Origin: Chitinophagaceae bacterium
GTDB taxonomy: Bacteria > Bacteroidota > Bacteroidia > Chitinophagales > Chitinophagaceae
Reading direction: 5' to 3'
Assembly (NCBI GenBank): GCA_031397865.1
Contig: JANNMN010000021.1
Span: forward strand, 15,441-79,440
Length of the DNA stretch: 64,000 nucleotides
Below the pieces are notes generated by a model. That model was given only the letters and a program-made list of their open reading frames with translations, made no database searches and was not told where the DNA came from. A program made the translations under genes and the position numbers. Positions 28,480-47,109 of the stretch are shown here, one piece after another; position 1 is the first letter of the stretch; each line of letters opens with the position of its first letter.

Positions 28480-28848
28480 TTACAATGAATCCAGTTCAAT
28501 TAATAATTGTAGAAGCTTTCCTCTTTTAATATCTTCTCCAAAGAATTTTATAGCCTGCGGTGCTATATAATCTTTTTCATGACCTTCCTTTTTCCATGCC
28601 TTGTCTGTTTTTAGATTGGGCAGATATATAAACTGCAACCACTCATTAAAATCTTCCACCGTAGCAAAATTTCTTTTTTCATAATGTCCCACCCATTCTG
28701 GTGTGGTAGCTGCCCATAAGCCTGCCCGCATCATCTCTTCTCTTACTTCTTGAATTTTTTCTGCTATTAAGCTTACATCAGTCATTGCCATAATTTGCTT
28801 AGCTAAGCTATCGGCGTTATTGATCTCCAAAAAGAATGATAAAGCCAA
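28480..28848 (-). CDS. YqcC-like (DUF446) protein
   Basis: 122 aa. The 'W....P......(F)....F.EWLQFIYLP' ... 'LLQLLIELDSL' pattern resembles E. coli YqcC. The true start may be an internal Met. Lies 20 bp upstream of paralogue 1. Confidence 0.6.
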   Translation of the reverse strand: MALSFFLEINNADSLAKQIMAMTDVSLIAEKIQEVREEMMRAGLWAATTPEWVGHYEKRNFATVEDFNEWLQFIYLPNLKTDKAWKKEGHEKDYIAPQAIKFFGEDIKRGKLLQLLIELDSL

Positions 28849-28975
28849 AGGGTATAAGATTTATCCAATGGTAAAATGCTACCCCACTACTTATTTAATG
28901 GCAGGTGTAATGAGTGAATGGGTAAACTATCGGAAAAAGGGTGTATATTTTTGCAACGTAACGGTGAACAAAAAA

Positions 28976-31900: not shown

Positions 31901-32050
31901 CGGATTGAAATACTAAACAGGGAAAGACCTGGCTCAGCCTCCATTGAAACAATTGATTTGATGGATGAAGCCGGTAAAGCAGCGGGTACAAAAGTGGTGA
32001 TAACATTGGCAAACGATTATAATACCTCAAAAAACATTAACCATGATTAA
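28976..32050 (+). pseudogene. Propeller/Y_Y_Y sensor histidine kinase (LytS-type His_kinase + HATPase) interrupted by one in-frame TAG
   Basis: ORFs 28820-29989 and 30020-32050 are in the same frame, separated only by TAG at 29987-29989. Homology continues across the stop ('..TNTFYQ*SNFVYENGKVLDGGITGIAEDVMGNIWI'). 'AQMNPHFIFNSLNAI' and an HATPase domain lie at the C-terminus. Confidence 0.75.
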
Positions 32051-32792
32051 AATATTAATTGTGGACGATGAGCAATCTGCAGGCCGCATACTAAAAGTGC
32101 TGATAGAAAAACATATACCTGGTGAGAAACAGATTGAAATTTCAAATCATCCGGCAGAAGCATTAGAGTTGCTAAAAACGTATCAGCCTACATTGGTAAT
32201 GCTGGATATTGAAATGCCGGGGATGAATGGTTTTGATTTTTTAAACCGGGCAAGTGAATGGAGTTTTGATGTCATCTTTACTACAGCATATGATCAGTAT
32301 GCTATCAAAGCTATCCGCTTTAGTGCATTGGATTATTTACTCAAGCCGGTGGATATTGTTGATTTACAAAATGCGGTAAACCGGCATATTGTAAAAAACC
32401 AAAGCGTAACCTCTACTTCTCAGCAGCCGCTGGTCAACAATTTGCTTTATAACTTACAGCAAAAAAACCAGGAGCAATTTAAACTAGCATTATCTACCAG
32501 CGAAGGCATTTTTTTATATGACCCTAAAGAAATAGTGTTGCTGGAAGGCAGTAGCAACTATACAAAGTTCTTTTTTGCCAAACAGAAACAGTTGATTGTA
32601 GCAAAAACATTAAAAGAGTATGAAGATATTTTATTAGACCACCAGTTTTTGCGGGTACACAAATCTTACCTGGTAAACAAGACACATGTAATAAAAGTAG
32701 ACAGGGAATCGGTGCTGGAAATGAGTAATAAAATGTATGTGCCCATAAGCCGCAGAAGAAAAATAGAAATATTGCAGTGGTTTGGGAAATAA
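32043..32792 (+). CDS. LytR/AlgR (LytTR) family response regulator
   Basis: 249 aa. Receiver domain plus LytTR domain ('FLRVHKSYLVN'). ATGA overlap with the kinase stop. Confidence 0.9.
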   Translation: MIKILIVDDEQSAGRILKVLIEKHIPGEKQIEISNHPAEALELLKTYQPTLVMLDIEMPGMNGFDFLNRASEWSFDVIFTTAYDQYAIKAIRFSALDYLLKPVDIVDLQNAVNRHIVKNQSVTSTSQQPLVNNLLYNLQQKNQEQFKLALSTSEGIFLYDPKEIVLLEGSSNYTKFFFAKQKQLIVAKTLKEYEDILLDHQFLRVHKSYLVNKTHVIKVDRESVLEMSNKMYVPISRRRKIEILQWFGK

Positions 32793-34267: not shown

Positions 34268-35065
34268 TCATCTCATCCGCAGCAGCTTTGCTGTGCCGGC
34301 ATATTTTACAAACCTAACTTCCGTATTACTAAGTGGTATGCCAAACTCGATACCTGCTGCCAGTACCATAGTGCAGCCTGCAGGATTATTCCAATTGTTC
34401 AGTGTAAGATGTATTTGCTGTGCTTCGCAATGTTGTTTCCAGCTATACCATGCGGTATGTATTGTATCGGGTGCAGGTAAGGCATCCACCACCGGAGCAT
34501 ACACTTTTTTGTTTTCATCATATACCACATCAGCTACTGCGCCGAGAGTAAATACAAAGCGATACAGCGGTTGTTGCTTTGGGTTATACAGGTTTATACC
34601 TGGTTCTACCAGTGGTAAGTCCACCATAGCAGTACCTGCTGCTTTGTTAATGTTGGTTGCTAACGGATACCGCAGCACCGATTCAAATAGATTGTACCGG
34701 CACAGGCTAAAGCCTTCCAGTTTATAATAGCCCTGCGAAAACAATACTGATCGTTGCCCTTTTTCGTGTAGGATATCCAGTAATTGTATGGATTTGCACA
34801 ACGCATTCAAATTGCCTGTATAATTATAATCTGCGAGCAGTTTGATGCGACCCACCGCCAGCATTATATTTTTTGCTGCCAGTATGTAGGCTTTCCACTC
34901 TTCATTATTGCGGCGGGTAAGATCAAAGTTGGGATGATTTTTTATCCGTTCCCGGCTGGCACCGCCCTTGCTCCGCAATATTATTTTATCTACTCCCCTC
35001 ATTTTATAAGCACTTGTATCACCCACCGGTCCTGTGTAAATATGTGCTCCATGCAGAAACGCCAT
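34268..35065 (-). CDS. Hypothetical protein, no recognisable domain
   Basis: 265-aa ORF without signal peptide or TM segments. Converges on the acyltransferase gene. Confidence 0.55.
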   Translation of the reverse strand: MAFLHGAHIYTGPVGDTSAYKMRGVDKIILRSKGGASRERIKNHPNFDLTRRNNEEWKAYILAAKNIMLAVGRIKLLADYNYTGNLNALCKSIQLLDILHEKGQRSVLFSQGYYKLEGFSLCRYNLFESVLRYPLATNINKAAGTAMVDLPLVEPGINLYNPKQQPLYRFVFTLGAVADVVYDENKKVYAPVVDALPAPDTIHTAWYSWKQHCEAQQIHLTLNNWNNPAGCTMVLAAGIEFGIPLSNTEVRFVKYAGTAKLLRMR

Positions 35066-35332: not shown

Positions 35333-35656
35333 TTACTTTACACAGGCTGGGTTATTTTCTCTCCAGTAAATAGTGCCGCCAGTATCGTAGTTGTTGATGA
35401 TATAGCAAAGAACCGATGCACCGCTTTTCATTTTTACTTTTACTACAATGGCTTTAGAAGAAGAAATGTTTTTATACAGGTCTGGCTCTGTATTACTGAT
35501 GTAACCGCCCTGCTCTTCCATATATACACTTGTTATCTGTTGAATATCTGCAGGAGTTATGGAAGGCACTGCGGCCATGGTAGTATAATCTTTTACTGAA
35601 CCGGCAAAAGCTTTATAATCGTTTTGCTTAATCAGCTTTGCTGCTCGAGGAGACAC
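35333..35656 (-). CDS. Small hypothetical protein downstream of the peptidase/propeller gene
   Basis: 107-aa ORF with a GTG or internal ATG start. Begins 62 bp after the 510-aa gene on the same strand. Confidence 0.45.
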   Translation of the reverse strand: MSPRAAKLIKQNDYKAFAGSVKDYTTMAAVPSITPADIQQITSVYMEEQGGYISNTEPDLYKNISSSKAIVVKVKMKSGASVLCYIINNYDTGGTIYWRENNPACVK

Positions 35657-35718
35657 GAACTAAGGCGCAGGAAAATGCAAGGCTCATAATAGTACATGAA
35701 CCTTGCACAAGAAACAAC

Positions 35719-37251
35719 TCAATTCTTCCACTTTTTAGTTGTTATTATTTCCGGGTGTATAGGATTGTAATTCCGGGATACTTTAAACAATTCACCTACT
35801 GCGTAGTTCTCCCAGCCCGGAATATTAATTTTTTTACCCGTTGCATTAAAAAACTGTAGTTTACCATTATCAGCTGCAGCAAAAACACTCTTATCATTGA
35901 CATGTAAATTGCTTATCAGCCCATTAGTTTGTAACTCTTCAACTACCACACCTTTAAATTTGCGATTTGCTAAGGTATAACCATGTATTTGTTTTTTACT
36001 ATTTTCCATCAGGTGCAGTATGCCTGTTTTAGGATTAATGGTAGCAACAATTTTTCCATTTGGAGTAAGTTTTGGTATAGCTATTATTTCTGTTTTTTTA
36101 ATGCGGTCTATTAAAGCAATCCTGCCCTCGGTGGCTGAAACAGCCAGCAATTTCCTGTTTTTGAAATCGAAAGTCATGGCTTCAGTTTTTTCATTGAACA
36201 CTGCTACTTCTTTTACTATTTTGTCATCTGAAAGGAGAAACAGCTTGTTGTCTTTACTCGCATATATTTCCCCATCCTCGTCTGATACAGCAATTGAATC
36301 TGGCTGTAATGCATCATTGATAAGTTCAACCTTCATGTTGCTTAATGAAAGCTTCCAGATGCCTTTTTTATCTTTCGAAGTAAAATAGGCAACTGTGTTT
36401 TCTGCATCCATTACCAAATTGTTTACCCTGCCTGCTATATTTTTTACATTAATTGTTTTGATATCTTTTTCAGGTGAGCCGCCAGATCCATTTTGTTGCT
36501 GGGATGATGCGGTAATGGCACAACTCACTTCATCATAATGCAGCACCTGCATAGGCGAAAAAATAATATAGCTGTCAATCATTCTTACTTTCCCACCGCT
36601 TTGAGAAATGCATATTCCATTGCGCCAGTCACCATCTGTTTTGAGAGAAAAATTCTTAGCATCATTTATCTTTATTTCGGTAGCAGCCTGTGTGGTTCTG
36701 TTTGAATCGTTATTAGGATCATGGGTATTGATAGTGGCATTGCTTCCATTAATTTTTAAACCAACAACAGTCATGCAATGACCACCCATACGGTCATAGC
36801 TATTACTGTCATTTGGATTGTCCCGTTCATATCTTCCGTAACATATTGCGCCAATACGCTTCATTTCAAAATGATTCTTAAGCTTATTAAGCGTTATAGT
36901 ATCGTCGTTACTGCAGGAACGGCTATACCAGTTACCCCAAAACCTGTCATCCACAAAATCTTCAATGCCATCTAACGCATCACTAAAACCAGTACCGTCT
37001 TCAGCATCTGTATCCATGTAGTCGGCCATAATGCCAATGTTATACTGAATATTCTGCACAGAGTATTTTGGAGAGTGTCCAGGTGCATAACTTGGTAACC
37101 GTCGCCACAAATTTGCCGAACCATTCTGGGATAAAAAGGCCATTACATTAGTGTAAGCTGTAGGTACACAATACATTTTTCCATCGCTGGGAAAGTTTCC
37201 CCATTTTTGATCGAAATCGGGCATTTCATCAACTGAATAATTAAAGCTCAT
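35719..37251 (-). CDS. Papain-fold (C39-like) cysteine-peptidase-like domain fused to a beta-propeller-like repeat domain
   Basis: 510 aa, no signal peptide. Candidate catalytic Cys 'MYCVPTAYTNV', His 'GGHCMTVVG' and Asp/Asn 'THDPNND'. The C-terminal approximately 250 aa are repetitive beta-strand blades. Confidence 0.55.
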   Translation of the reverse strand: MSFNYSVDEMPDFDQKWGNFPSDGKMYCVPTAYTNVMAFLSQNGSANLWRRLPSYAPGHSPKYSVQNIQYNIGIMADYMDTDAEDGTGFSDALDGIEDFVDDRFWGNWYSRSCSNDDTITLNKLKNHFEMKRIGAICYGRYERDNPNDSNSYDRMGGHCMTVVGLKINGSNATINTHDPNNDSNRTTQAATEIKINDAKNFSLKTDGDWRNGICISQSGGKVRMIDSYIIFSPMQVLHYDEVSCAITASSQQQNGSGGSPEKDIKTINVKNIAGRVNNLVMDAENTVAYFTSKDKKGIWKLSLSNMKVELINDALQPDSIAVSDEDGEIYASKDNKLFLLSDDKIVKEVAVFNEKTEAMTFDFKNRKLLAVSATEGRIALIDRIKKTEIIAIPKLTPNGKIVATINPKTGILHLMENSKKQIHGYTLANRKFKGVVVEELQTNGLISNLHVNDKSVFAAADNGKLQFFNATGKKINIPGWENYAVGELFKVSRNYNPIHPEIITTKKWKN

Positions 37252-37384
37252 AATGATAAGTTTTAAAGGTTATTAATGATTGATTTTTTTTTGAGTAAAT
37301 TATCTGACTGCAGTAATCTATTTTGTCAGGCGAACTATTACAGTAATTTTTTCATAATTGAAAGGTTGAATGATAAAAAATATT

Positions 37385-38560
37385 TTAGTTAAGGTTATAA
37401 ACAACAAAATAAAAAGTGAAATCATTGCTACCAAATACAAAGAGCTTGCCGGGTGAATCATAACCGGAACCAAAGGTTGGCGGAAGACTATTATTTGGTG
37501 TTATCATGATGATTGAGGTAGAAGTAAATTGTGAGCAGTTAATTACATAATCCGCCGAACCTACAGTGTGTGTTACAGTAAAATTTCCAGTGCCATTGAT
37601 AATACCGCCAGATGCATCTACTTGGCCCATGCAAACAGGCAGTAAGGGTGCATTGCCAGTTACGGTAGTTCTTGTAATTTTTCCCTCTATATTTATATCT
37701 CCGGCTGGATTAATTTGTACCCTGTCATTTCCATTCATACGCATTATCAAATTGCCGGTTGTATTACCACTGTTGGTGCCAAACCGTACATTGTTTCCTG
37801 ACAATTGGAAAAAACCTTTGTTTACACTGCTGCTTTTTAATTGCATCGTAGCAGCTGTGTTATTTATTATTAAATCCGAGTTGGTGGTTACATCGCCACT
37901 TAAAAAAGATGTTCCAACCACAACGATATTTCCACCTGTTGCCAAAGCTGCACCGCTTACGGTTCCTTGTGCTGTTACATTATTATCGGCCAGCAAACTA
38001 TTTCTGCTGCGTATGTTGCCATTTACATCCAGCCATTCTGTTGGAGAGTTTGTGCCAATACCTATGCTGTCGTTGGGGTTTGTAATACGGTTTCGGCCGG
38101 TAATGGGCCGTATCCAGTAGTTGTCATTTAACATTGCACTCCAGGTTGTACCATCATATTGATACAATTCGTTTTTATCAGTATCATATACCATCAATCC
38201 GTTTGGTGGTGTGGCGATGGCAAACTTTTGCGATGTTGTCATCCTTGGAAAAAGTACACCCTTGGTAGTGCTGCCAATATCCAATATTGCTTTAGTATTT
38301 GGTACGGTGATGCCAATGCCTACACTACCACCATTTGCAATAGTTAGTCTGGTAGCGGCATCTTCCTGTATAGCAAAACGGCCTTGCGATTGCACATAGC
38401 TTAATCGCCAGCTTTTAGCATCGAGAGTATTTAGGATTCCAATATTGCCATCAGCAACCTGCAATTTTTCTGTGGGGGTTGTAGTGCCTATACCTACGTT
38501 TTGTGCAGTTAGCTGCAACATTATGTTCAGCATAAAAAGCAGTAAAAATATTTTTTTCAT
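37385..38560 (-). CDS. Tail-fibre-like secreted protein, paralogue 2 (391 aa)
   Basis: Signal peptide. 'QNVGIGTTTPTEKLQV', a second 'VGIGITVPNTKAILDIGSTTKGVLFPRMTTSQKFAI' module, and 'MQLKSSSVNKGFFQLSGNNVRFGTNSGNT' shared with paralogue 1. Confidence 0.8.
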   Translation of the reverse strand: MKKIFLLLFMLNIMLQLTAQNVGIGTTTPTEKLQVADGNIGILNTLDAKSWRLSYVQSQGRFAIQEDAATRLTIANGGSVGIGITVPNTKAILDIGSTTKGVLFPRMTTSQKFAIATPPNGLMVYDTDKNELYQYDGTTWSAMLNDNYWIRPITGRNRITNPNDSIGIGTNSPTEWLDVNGNIRSRNSLLADNNVTAQGTVSGAALATGGNIVVVGTSFLSGDVTTNSDLIINNTAATMQLKSSSVNKGFFQLSGNNVRFGTNSGNTTGNLIMRMNGNDRVQINPAGDINIEGKITRTTVTGNAPLLPVCMGQVDASGGIINGTGNFTVTHTVGSADYVINCSQFTSTSIIMITPNNSLPPTFGSGYDSPGKLFVFGSNDFTFYFVVYNLN

Positions 38561-38611
38561 TTTGTATTATTTTATTTCAATACAAAAGTGAAAAACTAAT
38601 GAAGAGAAGAC

Positions 38612-38630
38612 AATAGCGAAATAGGGTGAA
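38612..38630 (-). promoter_or_regulatory. Conserved box TTCACCCTATTTCGCTATT upstream of paralogue 2
   Basis: Ends about 52 nt upstream of the ATG. Its TTG is followed 19-21 nt later by a cActTTTG -7-like element. Confidence 0.5.
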
Positions 38631-38813
38631 GTTGTGAATAGGCAATTGTGAATGGTAAATACCGTCTTCATTTCAGCTTTCTTAGAAAGAGGGGCTGTTG
38701 AAAACCAACCCGCCGTAAATAAATAACCTGTGAAAAAATTATGGCTGATTTTTTTATTGCTTTAAAACTTAATTGAGCAATCCCTTTAACTCTTGAATTT
38801 GTTATTGCTGCTC

Positions 38814-38832
38814 TTTAGCGAAATGGGGTAAA
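38814..38832 (-). promoter_or_regulatory. Second, weaker copy of the conserved box
   Basis: Minus strand TTTACCCCATTTCGCTAAA, about 250 nt upstream of paralogue 2. Confidence 0.3.
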
Positions 38833-38868
38833 ATTTGATAATGGTTTTGTTTAATAATGCTCTGAAGG

Positions 38869-39525
38869 TTACAATTTAATTTTACTGGATTTAGATCCTG
38901 CTGCTAATTGTGGCCACCATACCATATAGGTTTCTATAACTAAAAAAGGAATTACCCAGCAAAGCCATTCTGCAGTAGTTCTTCTTTCCATTTGGGAATC
39001 GAGAAAAGGAAACACTGTTTTGTAACCTAGTAAAGGAAACAGCCGGATGAATACAAATGCCAATGCAGCCGTATAACTTCTTACCATAAATTGACGGTGA
39101 GCTTTTATGTTCTTGTTTTTTATTGCCCACCATGCGGCTGCCGTACAGGCAAACCAGATGATTGATAAGATACCTAATGAAACCCGGCATGGTTTACAAT
39201 CATACATGAGATTGATGCGAAAGGCGCAAACTGCAGCTATGAGTGAGCCAATGATAAAGATCTTTCCTGCAGTGCGATGATACTTCATGTACTTCGTTCG
39301 AAAATTCTTCCAGAACTGCAGCGGTCCTAATAATAAAGCTACAGATGCTCCGGCAATATGCCCGATGAACCAGATCTTACTATCAAAAAAACCCCGCTTG
39401 AAATTTGGAGGCACATATCCCTTGCTATAATCTATAATTGTATAAACATAAAAATAAATGGAAAAGCCAATGATAGCTGTCCAGAAAATAAACCAGAATA
39501 TAGTTTTCCTTTTTATGCTAATCAT
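38869..39525 (-). CDS. DUF2306 family membrane protein
   Basis: 218 aa, 6 TM segments. 'GHIAGASVALLLGPLQFW', 'YHRTAGKI' and 'AHRQFMVRSY' pattern. Confidence 0.75.
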   Translation of the reverse strand: MISIKRKTIFWFIFWTAIIGFSIYFYVYTIIDYSKGYVPPNFKRGFFDSKIWFIGHIAGASVALLLGPLQFWKNFRTKYMKYHRTAGKIFIIGSLIAAVCAFRINLMYDCKPCRVSLGILSIIWFACTAAAWWAIKNKNIKAHRQFMVRSYTAALAFVFIRLFPLLGYKTVFPFLDSQMERRTTAEWLCWVIPFLVIETYMVWWPQLAAGSKSSKIKL

Positions 39526-39576
39526 GTTGCGTTGAAATTATTGAATAAAGAAGTTCTGCCTAACAAAACACAATCT

Positions 39577-40353
39577 TCATTGAGCCGCCGGTTGTTTAAG
39601 TTTTGCCATTGGTTTTTTATTTACTATTCCAGTCAACGTCAATAAAATTAAAAAAATAATGAAACCCACAAAAAATGCAATTAGTTGGTTAAGTGACCCT
39701 ACGAATTCAGTGAGTGGCTGAATAAGGTCATGCTTAATCAGGAGGGAGGTAATAAAGTCGTTTATAATAAAAAATGAACTGGATGCCAATATTGGCCATC
39801 CATTTCTTCTATCCTTCAAGAAAAAAAGAAGGCCTACAAAGAAAGTAATATACATTCCATATCCGATTAGCCCGGGAGCAACTGCAAGCAGCAAAAAGAA
39901 AATACTAATACCCAGCATTAATACAACGGTACTGATGAGAAAGGCGGCATGTATTTTTCTTCTTTTTTTCAGGATAAATGCCAATAAAATAATCAGCCCT
40001 AATTCTATCGACCCTAATACATTTTGTACGATCATAAAATCTCCTTCACCTGAAACGAGACCTTTGTGAGCTGAGTGAATGGCTAGTAGTACTGCCTGGG
40101 CAAAAAATAAAGGTCCAAAAAACAAAATGGAAAGTCCAATCCGTCTGTGCTTTATACCCTGTTTATTTCCGATAAGGCTGAGTTGGTATAGCATCAAAAA
40201 TAACCAACTGAAATTGACTATTACATGGAGTATTTGGTATGGTTTAGGTTTTGCATCTGCTCCAAAAAAGATACTCCAAAAACCAGAAACGGTTAATATC
40301 ATTGTGGTGAAGATGAGCAAGTACTCAAAAATGTATTGTTTGAAATTTTTCAT
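39577..40353 (-). CDS. Polytopic membrane protein, unknown function
   Basis: 258 aa, about 7 TM segments. Same strand, inside the fibre cluster. Confidence 0.6.
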   Translation of the reverse strand: MKNFKQYIFEYLLIFTTMILTVSGFWSIFFGADAKPKPYQILHVIVNFSWLFLMLYQLSLIGNKQGIKHRRIGLSILFFGPLFFAQAVLLAIHSAHKGLVSGEGDFMIVQNVLGSIELGLIILLAFILKKRRKIHAAFLISTVVLMLGISIFFLLLAVAPGLIGYGMYITFFVGLLFFLKDRRNGWPILASSSFFIINDFITSLLIKHDLIQPLTEFVGSLNQLIAFFVGFIIFLILLTLTGIVNKKPMAKLKQPAAQ

Positions 40354-40529
40354 ATACTTTTTTTAAGTGTATGAAAATTTATTGTGGCCAGTTGGCTTGA
40401 TGCAGCCGCTAATTCTGCACATGGGATATACTTGTTGTTTAAAAAAATGTCACATCCAATTTTTAAAATCTTCTTCAAAACAGGTTGTTTTTTTTCAATC
40501 CAAAATTGATAAACCAATAAAGTATAAAC

Positions 40530-40548
40530 AATAGCTAAAATGGGTGAT
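40530..40548 (-). promoter_or_regulatory. Degenerate copy of the conserved box inside a decayed promoter cassette
   Basis: Minus strand ATCACCCATTTTAGCTATT. The flanking sequence aligns with the 163-bp cassette, but the ATG reads TTG. Confidence 0.35.
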
Positions 40549-40600
40549 ATAAGGAATCCAAATCCGTCTTGTCGCTTCAGCCAAATAAAGAAAACGAGGC

Positions 40601-40902
40601 GAATTAATTTTTCTGCCCGGAGTCTCCCCTATTTTATGGACCGGGCCTATCAGGCATGAAGAATGTTACTTTTGAAATAGTAAGGGACTCTGGGCCTGAC
40701 ATATGGTTCTCACTTAAAATCTTTTCGGTAAAATCCTTCTTTATTTAGTATTTCTCTTCGAACCGGCTTGGTATAAATGTAAAACTTTCTTTTTCATATC
40801 GGCCCGGAGTCCGTCATGCATTTAAGCAACCAAAAGCATCAGATAGAAAGATCATCTTCAAATGTGGCGCCGCTGGGACGAGACTCCGGGCAGAAAAAAT
40901 TC
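40601..40902. mobile_element. MITE-like element / long inverted repeat
   Basis: Perfect 19-bp inverted repeats TTTTTCTGCCCGGAGTCTC (40608-40626) and its complement (40880-40898). A second inner inverted pair is GGACCGGGCC / GGCCCGGAGTCC. No ORF. Confidence 0.4.
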
Positions 40903-40922
40903 TGGAAACTTGTTTTGCCCCC

Positions 40923-42311
40923 CTAATTTACTTTGCCAAATAGAACTTTGCCGCTTGCGGAGCTATAATTTGGTACACCGATTAAAAACCGTTTTGTTAT
41001 TCCATCAATTGAAGTGGACTGACCCATTTCATCACCAGAATTTCCGCCGGGGTCTGTTATATATTGCAGTTTTTGCCAGCCCATCCCAATCCTTTGATAA
41101 ATGGTTGCAGAACCCTGGTCTGTATTGGCACCAACATTATCACCAGTAGCCCCCACAATGGCATAGTTGCCGGATATGGAAACGCTGCTTCCAAATCTAT
41201 CATCCGCAGCACCAGTAGCATCGGTTATTTTTTGCATCAGTACCCAGGTAGTTCCGTTCCATTGATAAATACTGGCAGAACCCTGATTGGAATTGGCACC
41301 AACATCATCACCATAAGCCCCCACAATGGCATAGTTGCCGGAAATGGAAACGCTAATTCCAAAATTATCTCCTGCATCACCGGTGGCATCGGTTATTTTT
41401 TGCATCAATACCCATGCGGTTCCGTTCCATTGATAAATACTGGCCGAGCCCTGGTCTGTATTGGCGCCAACAGCATCCCTAAAAGCCCCCACAATGGCAT
41501 AGTTGCCGGATATGGAAACGCTGCTTCCAAATCTATCTCCTGCATCACCGGTGATATCCGTTATTTTATTCATCAGTACCCAGGTAGTTCCGTTCCATTG
41601 ATAAATACTGACCGAGCCCTGGCTGGAATTGGCGCCAACATTATCACCAGTAGCCCCCACAATGGCATAGTTGCCGGATATGGAAACGCTGCTTCCAAAA
41701 TTATCATTGGCAGCACCAGTAGCATCTGCCATGGGCTGGTATTCACTTATGTTACCATTGGCAGCACAGTCGCCCCAAACGCCATAGCCTACATTGCCAG
41801 ATAAAATACTGCTGCTTTGCCAACTTGCATTACCAGTAGCATCGCTTGTTAATATTTTACTCATGCCTGCATCAGGAGTAAGTTTTAGTGCATTGGGCTT
41901 TACTGTATCTGCTTTTATATTGCCGGCTACATGCAGTTTATCTGTGGGTGTATTAATACCAATACCCACATTACCTGCTACATTGCTGTATTGATTGCTG
42001 CCATTTACAGTCCAGGTAGTTTCATCTGCTCTGGCAATTCTTTTCCAGCCAGTGCCATCATAGAGGTAAAAACCTGGAGTATTGGTAGTTAAAGGTTGGG
42101 TGTTTGTCTGGTAAACGATTAACCCTGTTGCAGGGCTTGCAATAGAATTTCGCTGTGTGTGAAACATACGAGGTATCAGCATGCCCTGTGTGGTGCTGGT
42201 AATATCCAATTTTGCACTGGCATCGGGGCTGGTAGTGCCAATGCCTACGTTTTGGGCAAACGTTGTTTGATATGTTGCAACTATTAATAAAAAAAAGATA
42301 ATCCTCTTCAT
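40923..42311 (-). CDS. Tail-fibre-like secreted protein, paralogue 3 (462 aa) with FG-GAP-like repeats
   Basis: Signal peptide and an N-module about 130 aa long shared with paralogue 1. Then more than 4 tandem 56-aa units 'D.FG.SVSISGNYAIVGA..D.VGAN..QGS.SIYQWNGT.WVLM.KIT'. Confidence 0.8.
   Translation of the reverse strand: MKRIIFFLLIVATYQTTFAQNVGIGTTSPDASAKLDITSTTQGMLIPRMFHTQRNSIASPATGLIVYQTNTQPLTTNTPGFYLYDGTGWKRIARADETTWTVNGSNQYSNVAGNVGIGINTPTDKLHVAGNIKADTVKPNALKLTPDAGMSKILTSDATGNASWQSSSILSGNVGYGVWGDCAANGNISEYQPMADATGAANDNFGSSVSISGNYAIVGATGDNVGANSSQGSVSIYQWNGTTWVLMNKITDITGDAGDRFGSSVSISGNYAIVGAFRDAVGANTDQGSASIYQWNGTAWVLMQKITDATGDAGDNFGISVSISGNYAIVGAYGDDVGANSNQGSASIYQWNGTTWVLMQKITDATGAADDRFGSSVSISGNYAIVGATGDNVGANTDQGSATIYQRIGMGWQKLQYITDPGGNSGDEMGQSTSIDGITKRFLIGVPNYSSASGKVLFGKVN
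41055..41740. repeat. 168-bp coding tandem repeat (4 full units plus 1 degenerate)
   Basis: The anchor 'GCCCCCACAATGGCATAGTTGCCGGA' recurs with its A at 41155, 41323, 41491 and 41659, a spacing of exactly 168 bp. Confidence 0.85.
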
Positions 42312-42397
42312 AGCAGGTTAATTTTAATTCAATCCAAAATTGATAAACTAATAAAGAGTGGACAATAGCGAAAAGGGGTGAAGTTGTGGGTGGTGAG
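42235..42397 (-). repeat. 163-bp promoter + 5'UTR + signal-peptide cassette, copy A
   Basis: Differs from 44123-44285 at 5 positions by my alignment. Spans the first about 26 codons of paralogue 3 plus 86 bp upstream. Confidence 0.9.
42364..42382 (-). promoter_or_regulatory. Conserved box TTCACCCCTTTTCGCTATT upstream of paralogue 3
   Basis: Ends 53 nt upstream of the ATG. Its 3' TTG serves as the -33 element, 20 nt before cAatTTTG. Confidence 0.5.
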
Positions 42398-42582
42398 CAG
42401 ATAGTGGACAGAGGCAAATTGGTAATGATATTATTTAATGAGTCTGAAGTATGAAAACCTGTAGAAATATTTATCAGTAATGAAGATTTTCCAGTTGTAA
42501 AAATTTATTCGGTGAAGACACGAAACAAGGAGGAAGGTGATTGATAAAAATTGGTGTATTTAAAATTTTACAAAACAACTAT

Positions 42583-44199
42583 TCATCTACTGAGCAGGGC
42601 TTCTATTTTTTTGAGCCTTGTATTTAATGCTTCTATTTGTTGTTCTTGTTTTTCTATAATCACCTGCTGTTCCTGTATCGCCTTTATAGCTACCGTACTA
42701 AAACCTGCGTAATTCATCTTATACAAATCTTTTTCTTTACTATAACTCACCAATTCGGGAAAGAGATTGTATGCCTGCTGCGCCAGCAAACCTATTTGCC
42801 TCTGCTCTGTTGGCTGCTGCCAGTTAAATTGATAATACGATGGATTTAATTTCATGATCAACGGCAGCACAGCAGCCATACTTTGTATATTTTTTTTATA
42901 ACGGCTGTCGCTTAGGGCATTAAAGGTGCCCGTTACATCATCTATATCAGCAATCTCTGTATTGGCATTGTTGTAAAAAGTAAGGTTGTTATCGCCGCTT
43001 GCACTGTAAATGCGCCATTGGTTTCCGTCGGTGCTATTTTCCAGCATAAGGCCGCCACCGGCTGCATGGCGTATATGCAGGTTGGCATCAGGCCCATCGG
43101 TACCTATGCCTACATTACCATCTTTTTGCACCACCATGGCATTGCTGCGGTTGGCATTATCATCACCATTGCCAATAATAAACAAAGGCGTTGTGCTGGT
43201 AGGTGAAGTTTGGGCTGAAAAAATAATTGAACTATTATACATACCTATTGCCGTACCGGCATAGCCCCTGGAAATTGTATTAGTTCCCATTGCGGTTGAA
43301 CTGCTTCCGCTGGCGGTTGTAAGATCGCCCATTGCGGTTGAAGCATATCCGCTGGCGGTTGCCGCATATGCCATTGCAGTTGAATAATTGCCACTGGCCA
43401 CCGTATATACTCCCATTGCGGTTGAATAGCCTCCGCTGGCGGTTGTAAAACCGCCCATTGCGGTTGAAGCATCTGCGCTGGCGATTGTATAATTTCCCAT
43501 TGCGGTTGATCTAAATCCACTGGCGGTTGTACTAATTCCCATTGCTGTTGAATAATCTCCCCGTGCAGCATTACTTATCAATCCGCTTCTGAAAGATCCA
43601 TTTTTTATATCAAAAAATAATGCATTGCCTGTAACACCGCTTACATCGGGCAATGATGCACTGTTATCGTACAATCTTTTAAATAATAAAGAAAAACCAA
43701 TGCCTGTACTGGCATCGGCATTGCTTTTAAAAATTATATACAAATCAGAAGAATTAAACACCCATTTACCGATAGTGGTATATCCATTGCCAACAGCTAA
43801 CAGGTAATTAGTTGATGAAGAAGCTTCTTTAATAATTAAAGAATCGCCTGTGCCAAGGCCCATCGTTTCGGCTGTTATCTCAATACCAACTGTTCCAGAA
43901 GCACCAGGAATATTTACATTGGCTAAAAGATTGGCAATATAATTACCCGATGGCCCACCGGGGTCATATATACGACCAGTCGAGTCAGCACCAACAAATG
44001 TTATGGTAGTTGCGTTCACCATTGTTTTTGTTTGTGCTACTGTGGGTGCCGTGCTGGTGGCAGTGGTAGGTGTGTTTACTAACAGGTTGCCGTTTACTTG
44101 TAACTTATTAAGTGGTTCTGTTGTGCCAATGCCTACGTTTTGGGCAAATGTTGTTTGATTTGTTGCAAGTATCAATAAAAAAAAGATAATCCTCTTCAT
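42583..44199 (-). CDS. Tail-fibre-like secreted protein, paralogue 4 (538 aa): CUB-like + YadA-head-like repeats + S74 intramolecular-chaperone domain
   Basis: Signal peptide and 'QNVGIGTTEPLNKLQV'. CUB-like segment 'GRIYDPGGPSGNY...DSLIIKE...IIFKSNADASTGIGFSLLF'. About 7 x 14-aa 'STAMG..T.ASG' repeats. C-terminal 'LSDSRYKKNI...GLLAQQAYNLFPELV...MNYAGF..' (Peptidase_S74-type) followed by a coiled coil. Confidence 0.85.
   Translation of the reverse strand: MKRIIFFLLILATNQTTFAQNVGIGTTEPLNKLQVNGNLLVNTPTTATSTAPTVAQTKTMVNATTITFVGADSTGRIYDPGGPSGNYIANLLANVNIPGASGTVGIEITAETMGLGTGDSLIIKEASSSTNYLLAVGNGYTTIGKWVFNSSDLYIIFKSNADASTGIGFSLLFKRLYDNSASLPDVSGVTGNALFFDIKNGSFRSGLISNAARGDYSTAMGISTTASGFRSTAMGNYTIASADASTAMGGFTTASGGYSTAMGVYTVASGNYSTAMAYAATASGYASTAMGDLTTASGSSSTAMGTNTISRGYAGTAIGMYNSSIIFSAQTSPTSTTPLFIIGNGDDNANRSNAMVVQKDGNVGIGTDGPDANLHIRHAAGGGLMLENSTDGNQWRIYSASGDNNLTFYNNANTEIADIDDVTGTFNALSDSRYKKNIQSMAAVLPLIMKLNPSYYQFNWQQPTEQRQIGLLAQQAYNLFPELVSYSKEKDLYKMNYAGFSTVAIKAIQEQQVIIEKQEQQIEALNTRLKKIEALLSR
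43243..43560. repeat. 42-bp coding periodicity (YadA-head/Hep_Hag-like repeats)
   Basis: Protein residues about 214-319 repeat as 'xSTAMGxxTxASGx'. The same periodicity creates the spurious ORF 43245-43571 in another frame. Confidence 0.65.
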
Positions 44200-44285
44200 A
44201 GCAGGTTAATTTTAATTCAATCCAAAATTGATAAACTAATAAAGAGTGGACAATAGCGAAAAGGGGTGAAGTTTTGGGTGGTGAG
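44123..44285 (-). repeat. 163-bp promoter + 5'UTR + signal-peptide cassette, copy B
   Basis: See copy A. Heads paralogue 4. Confidence 0.9.
44252..44270 (-). promoter_or_regulatory. Conserved box TTCACCCCTTTTCGCTATT upstream of paralogue 4
   Basis: Same position relative to the ATG as at 42364-42382. Confidence 0.5.
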
Positions 44286-44354
44286 TAATGAATGGTGAAT
44301 AGGAAATAGCCACACTATTCCTTATTATTTATACAAAAAATAATAAGGAATAGC

Positions 44355-44990
44355 TTACACAAGTTTATCCCGGATGGCCAATGATACGGCCTCTGTGCCG
44401 GAGTGTACATGCAGCTTGGCGTAAATATTCCTAATATGCGTTTTAACGGTATCAACCGAAACAAATAATTCAGCGGCTATCAATTTATAACTTTTGCCTG
44501 CTACTAATTGCTGCAGCACTTTTTTTTCCTGTGAGGTAAGGCTGTACTCATTTGTTGCTGCCGGCTGCAGGTTGTGTTTAAATAATTCCAATACCCTTCT
44601 TGCTATGCCTGGTGTCATTGGTGAGCCGCCAGCTTGTACATCTTTTATTGCTTCTATGTATCCATCAGGTGTGGTGCTTTTTAAAATATAACCCGATGCA
44701 CCTGCACAGATGGCATTGAAAATATATTCATCTTCAAAAAAAACAGTTTGTATAAGGATATTGATTTTTGGAAAATGTTCTTTAATGAGTTTGGTAGCTT
44801 CTATACCATTCATTCCGGGCATTTCAATATCCATCAATACAATGTCACAGGGAGAAACTTCCAGATTGGTAATAATGTTGCGACAATCGGGCCAGGCTCC
44901 GGAGCAGGTAAACCCTTCGGTATGATTGAGCAGGAGTTCAAAAGTCTCCCGCAGATGTTTATTGTCTTCAAAAACGGCTACTCGTATCAA
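44355..44990 (-). CDS. NarL/FixJ (LuxR-type HTH) response regulator
   Basis: 211 aa. Receiver domain ('IVLMDIEMPGMNG') plus LuxR HTH ('LTSQEKKVLQQLVAGKSYKLIAAELFVSVDTVKTHIRNIYAKL'). TTG start. Confidence 0.9.
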   Translation of the reverse strand: MIRVAVFEDNKHLRETFELLLNHTEGFTCSGAWPDCRNIITNLEVSPCDIVLMDIEMPGMNGIEATKLIKEHFPKINILIQTVFFEDEYIFNAICAGASGYILKSTTPDGYIEAIKDVQAGGSPMTPGIARRVLELFKHNLQPAATNEYSLTSQEKKVLQQLVAGKSYKLIAAELFVSVDTVKTHIRNIYAKLHVHSGTEAVSLAIRDKLV

Positions 44991-45035
44991 AACATTTCTC
45001 TTTTTACAAAAATGAATAAAAAACTAATTTGTATA

Positions 45036-45054
45036 AATAGCGAAATCGGGTGAA
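45036..45054 (-). promoter_or_regulatory. Conserved box TTCACCCGATTTCGCTATT upstream of the LuxR-type regulator gene
   Basis: Lies in the 109-bp kinase-regulator spacer, ending 46 nt upstream of the TTG start. Followed by a cAttTTTG -7-like element. Confidence 0.5.
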
Positions 45055-45099
45055 TATTATAGCCACAGCTTAAACAGATAAATACAAAATTGTGATAAT

Positions 45100-47109
45100 C
45101 TAAACTGGGACTTTCAAAATTATTTCAGTTCCTTCTCGGGCTGACGAATTAACTTGTAGAGTTCCATTCATCTCTGAGGCCCGGTGTTTCATATTATCAA
45201 GGCCGTTACCTCTTCCCGTTGTTTCTGCATCAAAACCCTTTCCGTAATCTTTTATCATCAGGGTTAATTCTTTGTTTTGTACGGTTGCTCTTATATCTGC
45301 CTTTTCAGTTTCAGAATACTTTACTGCATTGTTCAAAGCTTCTTTAAAAATGAGGTAAACATTTTTTCGCTGTTCCATCGTCAACTTTACTTTTCCCAAT
45401 TCGTCTAACTCAATGGATGTTCCAATATTTTTGCTGCTGCATATTTCATAAGCAAACCGTTCCATACGTTGCTTTAAACTAGTTCCTTCACTTTCACCAG
45501 GTTTTATCATCCAGACGATGTCGCCCATTTTATCCATGGTTTCTTTTGCATTTCCACTCATTCTTGTCAGAATGTCTTTATGTGTTGCTTCATTGCCTTG
45601 CTGCGTTGCCATCTGGCTCAGCATATGTATGCTGCTGAGAGAACTGCCCACTTCATCATGCAGATCAGCGGCTATCTGGTTGCGTAGTTCCAGTTCTTTC
45701 ATCCGCTGTTTTAATTTATTTCTATTTATTAAGAGCCCTATACCTACAAATGACAATAGTAATAGTAATGCGGCACCTGCAAACAATGATCGCTGCCGGA
45801 ATAGTTTTTGCCGCTGTAGTTCTTTGTCTTTTTTAAGCAACGTAATTTCTTTTTCTTTTTTGTCAACAGTGTATTGTTCCTCCATTTTTTTTATTTGTAT
45901 CTGAAGGTCATTATTCCGTATACTGTCAATGGCCTGATGATATTTGTTTGTATAATCGAGGGCTTTATCATATTGTTTATTAGCCGTATAAAAATCTACC
46001 ATGTTTTTTATACCTGTTGCCTGGCGGTTTAAATCGCCTTGTTGTTTAAAGAGATCAATGGTTGACATTAATTTACTTTCCGACAGTTCGGTTTTTTCTG
46101 TTTTGTATTGCAGGGCAATTAATTCTGCATCAATAGCAGCAACGGTTGTGTTGTTCTTCAATTGTTTTGCCAGCTCTTTACTTTTATTAAAATATTCAAT
46201 AGCCTGCTTTATTTCTTTTTTGGCGGCATACACTTTTGCTATACTCAGGTAGTTGCCCTGCTCTTCGGGTAAATTTTTTTGTTCTCTTGCATAACTTAAG
46301 CTTTCAGTAAAATGGATTAAGGCTTTATCGAAATCGCCCATGCCTAAATAAACATTGCCCAACCCACTTTGTGCTGTACCAAGTCCGCGGCGGTCATTTA
46401 AAGCAGTTTTTATTTTTAATGATTTATTGGCATATAGTAAGGCCTGATTGTATTGTTTTAATTGTGTAAAGGAACTGCTTAAACTTTGGTAGCAGAAAGA
46501 GATGCCCCTGTCGCTTCCTATTTCTTCAAATATTTTTAAAGCTTTCAAATGTTTTTCGGTGGCTTTTTTATAATTGCCAAGTTCTAAATAAGCGTTTCCT
46601 AAATTGAGGGTTTGCCCTGCGGTAGATTCTTTATCTCCCATTTTAATTAGTAAGGCAATAGCATTTTCGAAAAAAGGAATTGCTTTTTGGTTATCACCTG
46701 TTCTTCTATAATAAAGAGCAGCACAGGTGTAATAATTAGAAGTGATGGCATCCTTTTCAGATTCAATAGCATATTGCGCCAGGTTTTTAGCCAGTTTAAG
46801 ATAATATTCGGCACTATCTGAATTGCCGGCGTTATGAAACCAGTAAACCAATTGACTATAAGAAGTACTCAGCCTTTTTGTATCATTTATTTTATGAGCT
46901 ATTGCTATTGCCGCATTTGTATAGGCCCTTGATTTAGCGGCATCTTTCCTGGTGTATTCGTAGGACAATGCACTGTATGCTTTGGCCACATCGGCATCGT
47001 TTTTATTTTCTGCAATTATTTTATTTAAACTGTCTTCTATATTCTGCTGTCCTTTGCTTATACCAGGCAGTAAAAAAAGTGTAAATGAAATAATCAGAAA
47101 CCATTTCAT
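45100..47109 (-). CDS. TPR-repeat sensor histidine kinase (HisKA_3 + HATPase_c)
   Basis: 669 aa. Signal/anchor, then about 8 TPR-like repeats, one TM, 'IAADLHDEVGSSLSSI' H-box and HATPase N/G boxes ('EALNNAVKYS', 'DYGKGFD', 'GNGLDNM'). Confidence 0.9.
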   Translation of the reverse strand: MKWFLIISFTLFLLPGISKGQQNIEDSLNKIIAENKNDADVAKAYSALSYEYTRKDAAKSRAYTNAAIAIAHKINDTKRLSTSYSQLVYWFHNAGNSDSAEYYLKLAKNLAQYAIESEKDAITSNYYTCAALYYRRTGDNQKAIPFFENAIALLIKMGDKESTAGQTLNLGNAYLELGNYKKATEKHLKALKIFEEIGSDRGISFCYQSLSSSFTQLKQYNQALLYANKSLKIKTALNDRRGLGTAQSGLGNVYLGMGDFDKALIHFTESLSYAREQKNLPEEQGNYLSIAKVYAAKKEIKQAIEYFNKSKELAKQLKNNTTVAAIDAELIALQYKTEKTELSESKLMSTIDLFKQQGDLNRQATGIKNMVDFYTANKQYDKALDYTNKYHQAIDSIRNNDLQIQIKKMEEQYTVDKKEKEITLLKKDKELQRQKLFRQRSLFAGAALLLLLSFVGIGLLINRNKLKQRMKELELRNQIAADLHDEVGSSLSSIHMLSQMATQQGNEATHKDILTRMSGNAKETMDKMGDIVWMIKPGESEGTSLKQRMERFAYEICSSKNIGTSIELDELGKVKLTMEQRKNVYLIFKEALNNAVKYSETEKADIRATVQNKELTLMIKDYGKGFDAETTGRGNGLDNMKHRASEMNGTLQVNSSAREGTEIILKVPV

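Follow-up and report, generated by a model that had tools for sequence, protein, structure and literature searches.

A probable two-component regulon island carrying MAT-like secreted fibers in a Chitinophagaceae bacterium

Gene content and fiber proteins of the island

A 64,000-nt stretch of a Chitinophagaceae genome (GenBank assembly GCA_031397865.1; hereafter the window) carries at positions 35333-47109 a sensor kinase gene and a response regulator gene followed by genes for secreted proteins that resemble phage tail fibers (Table 1). We read this region as a two-component regulon island, in the chromosome of a bacterium near Ferruginibacter, whose main cargo would be fibers like the mosaic adhesive trimer (MAT) proteins of Bdellovibrio, and we give this reading a probability of roughly 0.65. 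It is carried by the gene content, by a promoter box in front of the regulator and fiber genes, and by the conserved linkage of regulator to fiber genes in relatives. The large open reading frames (ORFs) of the region all lie on the minus strand, and their coordinates agree with those of an initial annotation made from the sequence alone, as do the Pfam and NCBIfam assignments of the kinase and the regulator.

Table 1. Features of the island and of the neighboring F1 island, with positions in the window
Feature	Position	Strand	Composition or evidence
TPR sensor kinase	45100-47109	minus	TPR_12/TPR_1 + HisKA_3 + HATPase_c (Pfam, NCBIfam)
Box before regulator	45036-45054	minus	TTCACCCGATTTCGCTATT, 45 nt ahead of TTG; CATTTTTG (-7-like) 21 nt further
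NarL/LuxR-type response regulator	44355-44990	minus	REC + GerE helix-turn-helix (Pfam 2.1e-20, 1.9e-18)
Box before F4	44252-44270	minus	0 mismatches, 52 nt ahead of ATG
Fiber F4	42583-44199	minus	leader, QNVGIGT cap motif, ~150-aa unassigned domain, YadA-head-like repeats, second cap motif, S74
Box before F3	42364-42382	minus	inside 166-nt segment 42232-42397
Fiber F3	40923-42311	minus	leader, N-proximal module common with F1, 4-5 FG-GAP_2 repeats
MITE-like element	40608-40898	none	291 bp, perfect 19-nt terminal inverted repeats
Decayed fiber promoter/leader cassette	40487-40579	minus	repeat search, box scan
Box of decayed cassette	40530-40548	minus	2 mismatches
Polytopic membrane protein	39577-40353	minus	~7 hydrophobic transmembrane segments (hydropathy), no family
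DUF2306 membrane protein	38869-39525	minus	5 transmembrane segments; Pfam 1.5e-29
Distal box before F2	38814-38832	minus	3 mismatches
Proximal box before F2	38612-38630	minus	0 mismatches, 51 nt ahead of ATG
Fiber F2	37385-38560	minus	leader, cap motif, shared N-module at residues 78-185, unassigned C-terminal domain
510-aa protein: putative papain/C39-like N-terminal half, beta-propeller C-terminal half	35719-37251	minus	alignment, AlphaFold2 model
107-aa ORF (5'-truncated remnant)	35333-35656	minus	tblastn
Reg_prop/Y_Y_Y/His_kinase sensor + LytTR response regulator	28820-32792	plus	divergent from F1 operon
LytTR-type direct repeat, 20 nt apart	28914-28922; 28894-28902	minus	CCCATTCAC; GCCATTAAA; 46-74 nt upstream of DUF446 start
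DUF446 gene, first of F1 operon	28480-28848	minus	Pfam
Fiber F1 (PTL_trimer family)	26498-28459	minus	separate LytTR-controlled island
882-aa BNR/Sortilin-like protein	23826-26474	minus	follows F1; same order with F1-like fibers in relatives

The kinase has many TPR matches (TPR_12, 8.8e-29) along with HisKA_3 (3.5e-10) and HATPase_c. Hydropathy reveals a hydrophobic N-terminal leader, a TPR region of ~415 aa and a single transmembrane segment at residues 439-464, and from this leader and single segment the TPR block is predicted to be periplasmic. A HisKA_3 and HATPase_c kinase paired with a REC and GerE regulator, which here starts at a TTG codon, places the system in the NarL/FixJ class. 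The nearest kinase homologs belong to metagenome-assembled genomes (MAGs) of Chitinophagaceae (75-78% identity) and of Ferruginibacter (64-68%), and the kinase has many paralogs. As for the other ORFs of the window, the Pfam matches listed (25 of 72 families; no PHROGs scan of these ORFs was made) include no phage structural, terminase or integrase family, in keeping with the absence of phage genes noted initially, and no sigma-factor gene; the remaining scanned ORFs fall, among those matches, into housekeeping or regulatory families. PADLOC matched neither the membrane proteins nor the 510-aa protein nor the fibers and thus gave no tie to a known defense system. Scans for sigma-70 promoters and intrinsic terminators gave no more matches than chance, with models that do not apply to Bacteroidota promoters.

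The fiber proteins F4, F3 and F2 of the island and F1 of the neighboring island are 391-653 aa long, and all four open with a Sec-type leader that ends in Ala before a Gln and is followed by (N/S)VGIGT. Ten copies of a VGIGTxxPxxKL-type motif occur in the 64 kb, all of them confined to these four ORFs. The proposed paralogy is borne out by 57% identity between F1 and F3 over the first 144 aa and 35% between F1 and F2 over 234 aa. F4 has only its first 29-40 residues in common with the others. Of the N-terminal features initially ascribed to all four proteins, the leader and the VGIGT motif hold for F4 and the "GMLIPRMT" module does not. This module of ~120 aa directly follows the leader in F1 and F3 and is displaced in F2. 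A profile built from it matched 103,786 cluster representatives (37,384 at E<=1e-10), often internally and with up to 57 copies per protein in giant proteins. Because the matches are internal, many-copy and spread over more than 100,000 clusters, the module is best described as a widespread shaft repeat and not as a dedicated anchor, and the "conserved attachment end" of the initial annotation has to be given up. A cluster look-up of the top matches returned almost no names. The matches also include P0297, a 7453-aa "DUF5011 domain-containing protein" from a Burkholderiales MAG, which takes the module beyond Bacteroidota.

The distal parts of the fibers differ in pairwise comparison, as had been suggested. 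Pfam finds four YadA_head stretches (1.4e-13) and Peptidase_S74 (2.3e-10) in F4 and four FG-GAP_2 stretches (7e-52) in F3, which agrees with the initial domain calls; a "CUB-like" part of F4 has no Pfam match at E<=0.1. F4 scores 41 bits against PF13884, for which the cut-off is 22, and carries the catalytic motif SDSRYK at residue 430 (S430, K435), which identifies it as an S74 protein. No family in the Pfam copy searched matches F1 or F2; a recent Pfam entry, PF26696 PTL_trimer, covers the F1 family. The C-terminal domain of F1 (WPDYVF...KIEELTLYI) is not demonstrably related to S74, as hhalign aligned only the terminal helix with a probability of 47%. At the DNA level, positions 41031-41666 of F3 consist of tandem 168-nt units of 78-81% identity that encode FG-GAP blades, and positions 43219-43596 of F4 of tandem 42-nt units that encode 14-residue YadA-head repeats; both suggest recent repeat amplification.

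The family of F4 has more than 4,000 relatives, which go by the NCBI name "tail fiber domain-containing protein" and the JGI name [quoted passage not shown]. Sequence matches of F4 in the PDB are the BpaC head (9e-15), the CbpF head and the phage S16 long tail fiber, the PHROGs matches are to tail-fiber families, and an IMG/VR scan with F4 returned no close relative. An AlphaFold2 model of F1 (predicted local distance difference test, pLDDT, 78; predicted template modeling score, pTM, 0.47) was compared with the PDB by Foldseek. The best match is Bd2133 (E 1.7e-6), with Bd1334, Bd3182 and Bd2439 at 3e-4 to 5e-3, and the Mu and T4 gp34 fibers rank below these Bdellovibrio fibers. In BFVD, the closest proteins to the model are phage "intramolecular chaperone auto-processing" S74 fiber proteins (E ~1e-18). 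Pfam and NCBIfam find no type IX secretion system (T9SS) sorting domain (Por_Secre_tail/TIGR04183/TIGR04131) at E<=0.1 in F1-F4, and in F4 they find YadA_head and S74 only, with no C-terminal YadA-type beta-barrel anchor. A T9SS or lipoprotein export route for the fibers therefore has no support from these libraries and was set aside. No toxin domain was found in F1-F4 with Pfam, NCBIfam or PHROGs, and a literature search on this protein family in Bacteroidota returned nothing relevant.

A promoter box shared by regulator and fiber genes

A repeat search revealed a 93-nt element 5' of F4, F3 and F2, with a fourth copy in what we describe below as a decayed cassette. Its 19-nt core has six copies in the window, one of them between the kinase and regulator genes. 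Searched as TTCACCCNNTTTCGCTATT at <=3 mismatches, this box gives 6 window matches against 0.16 expected, all on the coding strand, and 132 matches in related loci against 2-4 in shuffled sequence. The consensus of 123 instances, yTCACCCnaTTTCGCTATTG, is followed after 20-21 nt by (t)cAnyTTTG and then by an A-rich leader; the box itself is 19-20 nt long, and 104 of the 123 instances keep the spacing of 20-21 nt to the -7-like element. The ATG of fiber genes lies ~52 nt past the box, and in related loci the TTG of the regulator lies 41-48 nt past it. Bacteroidota promoters, as studied in Bacteroides and Flavobacterium, have a -7 element TAnnTTTG and a -33 TTG element. We take CAnnTTTG to correspond to the former, and the 3' end of the box presumably falls at the expected -33 TTG. 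Since this end overlaps the -33 region and the box lies upstream of the -7-like element, the box sits where a class II activator would be expected to bind. The copy in front of the regulator's own gene points to autoregulation, and judging from this arrangement the regulator would both autoregulate and drive each cargo gene through the box.

The box is present before regulator and fiber genes in dozens of Chitinophagaceae genomes. The ORFs behind it comprise 38 regulators, 34 fibers and 22 others, nearly all of the last with signal peptides or lipoboxes. It stands at the same position in 56 of the 60 related regulators that score >=280 bits and in 2 of the 12 below 280 bits, both of which are truncated ORFs of the same clade; box presence follows the regulator clade. 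A more distant regulator clade, which includes Parafilimonas MAGs, has the variant TCCCTCAtTTTCGGtAGA at the same position. When metagenomes were scanned for the exact 20-mer with no condition on genes, 57 contigs were found, and the 43 ORFs behind the box included 26 fibers and 3 regulators. The box travels with the kinase/regulator pair through different chromosomal contexts. The leader after the -7-like element (44200-44251 in the window, for example GGATTGAAtTAAAAtnAAC) is itself conserved, with 57% identity over 45 nt between loci. Bacteroidota of this kind do not depend on Shine-Dalgarno sequences, and the short conserved leader may matter for translation initiation. Neither tRNA genes nor Rfam families were found in the window, so the leader is not a known RNA family.

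To assess linkage, species-representative genomes were scanned for the kinase, which gave 78 loci in Chitinophagaceae and Cytophagales; ORFs were called in these loci and searched with the window proteins (individual loci are cited below by handles such as L001). Synteny was counted for kinase relatives of >=340 bits with >=3 kb of flank, a fiber ORF being scored within 3 kb of the regulator. A fiber lies downstream of the regulator in 27 of these 42 loci, always on the same strand and in 20 cases within 700 bp, against 4 of 37 in the upstream control. Fiber density is 1.57 per 10 kb downstream and 0.25 upstream. The conserved neighborhood of kinase, regulator and fibers on which the initial annotation made its reading depend is therefore found in relatives. 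Some ten genomes have the window's anchor Patatin-CtaA-RNase HII-kinase-regulator with different cargo behind it, be it an F1-like fiber with a BNR protein, an F2-like fiber or a 263-aa secreted protein. Non-fiber cargo includes beta-lactamase-fold and BTRD1 proteins, T9SS-tailed proteins, Peptidase_M23 and DUF418. Approached from the fibers, the linkage is found again: all six fiber-anchored loci (L001, L086, L088, L146, L147, L148) have a TPR/HisKA_3-LuxR pair, a Reg_prop/Y_Y_Y/His_kinase-LytTR pair or both alongside. The order in L146 is kinase, regulator, FG-GAP fiber, two PTL_trimer proteins, YadA/S74 fiber, LytTR regulator and its kinase, which is almost the layout of the window.

Several further observations concern the cargo of relatives. 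In L088 (1788-15164) and L001 (15736-17635), three Peptidase_M23 genes and genes for M43/reprolysin-like metallopeptidases are scattered among the fiber genes, a hint that the regulon could have a lytic or antagonistic role. Two more cargo families, neither with an assigned function, recur behind the box, a 185-204-aa lipoprotein (...SCKK...GFLCTIG...) and a ~930-aa secreted protein that begins with QQ(I/V)NGVFT.FA.NN and is often divergent from the kinase; they occur in genome loci (L013, L024, L041, L044, L055, L061, L065; L023, L038, L048, L050) and in metagenome loci (L096, L099, L120, L132, L139, L145). In the cultured Cytophagales species Ravibacter arvi JCM 31920 (L068, 9581-14413), a kinase and a regulator are joined by two F2-like fibers, with box variants ahead of the regulator and the first fiber, and by this layout the circuit extends past Chitinophagaceae.

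Variable cargo and the neighboring F1 island

The island also bears traces of rearrangement. Segments of 166 nt at F3 (42232-42397) and F4 (44120-44285), each spanning the promoter plus 80 nt at the start of the coding sequence, are 96% identical, and outside them the two genes are unrelated. Promoter-leader segments are 75% identical within a locus and 57% between loci (over 45 nt, with only 7 within-locus pairs). The decayed cassette recognized in the initial annotation proves to be a fourth promoter/leader copy that keeps the box, the -7-like element and the leader; its ATG has mutated to TTG and its fiber body is gone. It sits 134-226 nt upstream of the gene for the larger membrane protein (39577-40353). 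Between this cassette and F3 lies a 291-bp element, initially called a miniature inverted-repeat transposable element (MITE), with terminal inverted repeats at 40608-40626 and 40880-40898. The inverted repeats are real; no second copy occurs in the window or in 88 related loci, and for such a single-copy element mobility is not shown. Its interior folds strongly (z = -5). The 107-aa ORF, previously listed as a gene of its own, is the 3' third of a gene for a 263-aa secreted protein: 102 codons from the end of that gene remain, with 83% identity to residues 162-263 by tblastn, and L005 and L021 carry the gene intact behind the regulator. The near-identical 166-nt segments, the decayed cassette, the MITE-like insertion and the truncated gene together suggest that the island changes by cassette turnover around the conserved promoter-plus-leader segment. 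Just downstream of the truncated remnant, a 265-aa ORF (34268-35065, minus strand) has no Pfam, NCBIfam or PADLOC family, a weak PHROGs match only (E 0.0023) and no counterpart in related loci.

The two polytopic membrane proteins and the 510-aa protein belong to the cluster as initially drawn, but they are not conserved with the kinase, as each is found in 0 of the 78 kinase-anchored loci. In L088, though, a DUF2306 protein is encoded 8.8 kb downstream of P0126, an F1-like fiber. The 510-aa protein has no signal peptide and 44 detectable relatives, and it recurs in other settings. An alignment with 24 of these relatives shows Q15 and C28 as nearly invariant and H158 and P179 as invariant, with D178 preceding P179 in the query. 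We take the spacing of C28, H158 and D178 to mirror that of C25, H159 and N175 in papain. A weak Peptidase_C39_2 match was obtained for one homolog only; the query itself has none, and its Pfam matches are weak beta-propeller ones. In the AlphaFold2 model (pLDDT 89, pTM 0.88), the C-terminal half forms the beta-propeller that had been proposed, resembling LRP6, NHL and WD40 propellers, and this half dominates the fold search. Homologs are found near a TPR kinase and LuxR regulator in L082, where a box lies 204 nt upstream of the homolog, beside the same two families in L084, and in L085 after a LytTR pair and DUF446. Since its homologs adjoin these two-component families, the 510-aa protein appears to be recurrent but optional cargo.

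The initial annotation also counted a fourth paralog, F1, in a neighboring island. The paralogy stands; membership in the same regulon does not, for no TTCACCC box was found upstream of F1 in the window scan, and F1 belongs to a separate, conserved LytTR/DUF446 island. The direct repeat CC(A/G)TT... with a period of ~20 nt upstream of DUF446, which we presume to be a pair of LytTR boxes from its resemblance to them, is conserved in L001, L039, L085 and L086. The entire unit of sensor, LytTR regulator, DUF446, F1 and BNR protein recurs in L001, L039 and L086, the last with an F1 ortholog of 78% identity, and the sensor/LytTR synteny is found in L085 as well. In the window, one in-frame stop at 29987-29989 divides the sensor (28820-32050, plus strand) into two ORFs (389 and 676 aa); in relatives it is a single protein of 940-1042 aa, and the split could reflect a pseudogene or a sequencing error.

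Interpretation and relation to known systems

In the mechanism that we propose, the TPR kinase, with its sensor domain predicted to be periplasmic, would phosphorylate the NarL/LuxR-type regulator. The regulator would bind the box overlapping the -33 region upstream of CAnnTTTG, the copy before its own gene serving autoregulation and the copies further on each serving a downstream cargo gene. The cargo would be mostly Sec-exported fibers, each with a leader cleaved before Gln, a beta-helix or beta-prism shaft punctuated by VGIGTxxPxxKL and an exchangeable distal part: a YadA-head with a self-cleaving S74 chaperone in F4, an FG-GAP propeller in F3 and an unassigned beta domain in F2. In this reading the fibers are the Bacteroidota counterpart of MAT proteins; most likely they assemble as trimers and attach to glycans or proteins on the surface of other cells or particles.

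The initial annotation did not recognize a described system here. The NCBI name and PF26696 already exist for these families, and the MAT proteins of Bdellovibrio have the same architecture: a signal peptide, a conserved N-proximal beta-rich domain, a trimeric beta-helix shaft and swapped tips (Caulton et al. 2024, PMC10769870). That study describes 21 proteins, 13 with S74 tips (SDxxxK) and 8 with non-S74 tips; their trimeric shafts have cap loops, they localize to the cell surface with a bare signal-peptide design, and one binds prey glycans (PMC10769870). Like them, the window proteins are a host-encoded set of several paralogs, all four with a Sec signal peptide, and their C-terminal tips are exchangeable, that of F4 being S74 and those of F1, F2 and F3 unrelated domains. 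A beta-rich N-proximal region and a tail-fiber-like shaft punctuated by cap-loop motifs are candidate further likenesses; MAT fibers are also the top PDB fold matches for F1. The differences are a host in Bacteroidota instead of Bdellovibrionota, a length of 391-653 aa instead of ~1,000 aa, tips of YadA-head and FG-GAP type, and a cap motif one residue longer than the V-G-G/N-pi-x-x-P-x-x-x-L of MATs. The N-module here is a general repeat that F4 lacks, and the genes form clusters behind two-component systems marked by a signature box, an arrangement that the accessible parts of PMC10769870 do not report. No Bacteroidota entry appears in its supplements as far as these were available, and the literature found on MAT proteins deals with Bdellovibrio-like organisms only.

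Other known systems resemble parts of the locus. The S74 fibers and tailspikes of phages (K1F endosialidase, T5 pb1, S16 gp37) have the Ser-Lys motif of F4, shaft repeats and cap motifs; the window proteins, in contrast, are Sec-exported and chromosomally regulated, and no genes for a virion or baseplate lie in their vicinity. Trimeric autotransporter adhesins (YadA, BpaC, EmaA) share the YadA-head repeats with F4, as seen in the BpaC head match, but F4 ends in an S74 chaperone instead of a beta-barrel anchor. FimS/FimR of P. gingivalis is likewise a Bacteroidota system in which a TPR sensor kinase adjoins and governs surface-appendage genes, yet the kinase scores 80.5 bits against the FimS model (NF053520; cut-off 600), belongs to the HisKA_3/NarL class and has unrelated cargo. 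The F1 island recalls LytTR regulons (AgrA, ComE, AlgR) in its divergent His_kinase/LytTR pair and the direct-repeat pair before the first operon gene; it differs in a sensor with Reg_prop/Y_Y_Y beta-propellers and in its cargo of fibers and DUF446, and its box is putative.

A number of points weigh against our reading. In 15 of the 42 kinase loci, no fiber is detectable downstream, and other secreted proteins or nothing recognizable are found instead. The F1 model is a monomer with a pTM of 0.47 and low TM-scores. The N-proximal module is at most a candidate homolog of the N-terminal domain of MAT proteins. By Pfam and NCBIfam, the fibers lack a lipobox, a T9SS C-terminal domain and an autotransporter anchor, and we infer trimers, export beyond the periplasm and binding. 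Finally, the box has no dyad symmetry, unlike the classical 7-2-7 sites of NarL, and another factor could bind it.

The first of the alternatives accepts the regulon and disputes the adhesins: the fibers would be released or periplasmic lectin-like factors, for instance targeting modules for secreted lytic enzymes or bacteriocin-like agents. The missing outer-membrane anchoring or export signal speaks for it, as do the generic nature of the shared shaft repeat and the sister loci that interleave fibers with Peptidase_M23, M43-like and beta-lactamase-fold hydrolases and T9SS cargo. We nevertheless think it rather unlikely, given that no toxin domain was detected in F1-F4 and that MAT proteins, the structurally closest characterized proteins, have the same bare signal-peptide design and were shown to sit on the cell surface (PMC10769870).

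A second alternative assigns the box to another factor, for instance an alternative sigma factor or an activator encoded away from the locus, with the two-component system acting indirectly or on other targets. An almost invariant box that overlaps -33 does look more like a promoter element than a degenerate regulator site, and the inverted repeat that GerE-type dimers usually bind is missing. This explanation is improbable, however, as it must account for a box that precedes the regulator gene in 56 of 60 close relatives, is absent or altered in distant ones and accompanies the kinase/regulator pair across contexts, with no sigma-factor gene among the Pfam matches listed.

That the fibers are prophage remnants, or orphan fibers of a tailocin or contractile injection system encoded elsewhere, is very improbable despite their sequence and fold likeness to phage tail fibers and S74 proteins. 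The Sec leaders on all four are incompatible with cytoplasmic assembly of a particle, no phage gene is among the Pfam matches listed for the 64 kb, IMG/VR was negative for F4, and the host box and the synteny beside housekeeping genes are conserved in many genomes. The initial view of host-encoded fibers is thus upheld by conserved synteny, the shared cis-element and the leaders. A chance adjacency of two abundant kinds of gene, the F4 family with its more than 4,000 relatives and a kinase with many paralogs, can be dismissed, as it is contradicted by the 27 of 42 against 4 of 37 asymmetry, the shared cis-element and the agreement of box- and fiber-anchored loci.

Beyond the regulon island with MAT-like cargo, a wider reading is possible, and we put it forward tentatively, with the odds clearly against it. 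Chitinophagaceae, along with at least one Cytophagales bacterium, may have a dedicated plug-and-play recognition system in which two sensors switch on arrays of MAT-like fibers. One sensor would be the periplasmic-TPR kinase with its LuxR-type regulator and the almost invariant 20-nt "fiber box", and the other the beta-propeller kinase with its LytTR regulator and the DUF446 leader gene. Recombination at the conserved promoter-plus-leader segment would bring in new tips, and the fibers together with co-regulated lytic enzymes (M23, M43-like, beta-lactamase-fold and papain-like/propeller proteins) would recognize and attack other microbes on contact. The whole would be a Bacteroidota analog of the way Bdellovibrio handles its prey, to which an inducible layer of regulation, not known for MATs, is added.

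The fiber type is of an already known, MAT-like kind, and what appear to be new are the box-defined regulon and the flanking of fiber arrays in Chitinophagaceae by two two-component systems. MAT adhesins have been characterized only in Bdellovibrio-like predators, while thousands of similar Bacteroidota proteins are called merely "tail fiber domain-containing" or hypothetical. The regulon offers a way to test when these bacteria, abundant in soil and fresh water, put their fibers to use, the box serves as a signature for finding the regulon in genomes, and Ravibacter arvi JCM 31920 is a cultured carrier with the same layout. If the fibers do recognize other microbes, the system would bear on competition and predation by Chitinophagaceae in soil and activated sludge, and it could supply a natural library of modular receptor-binding tips.

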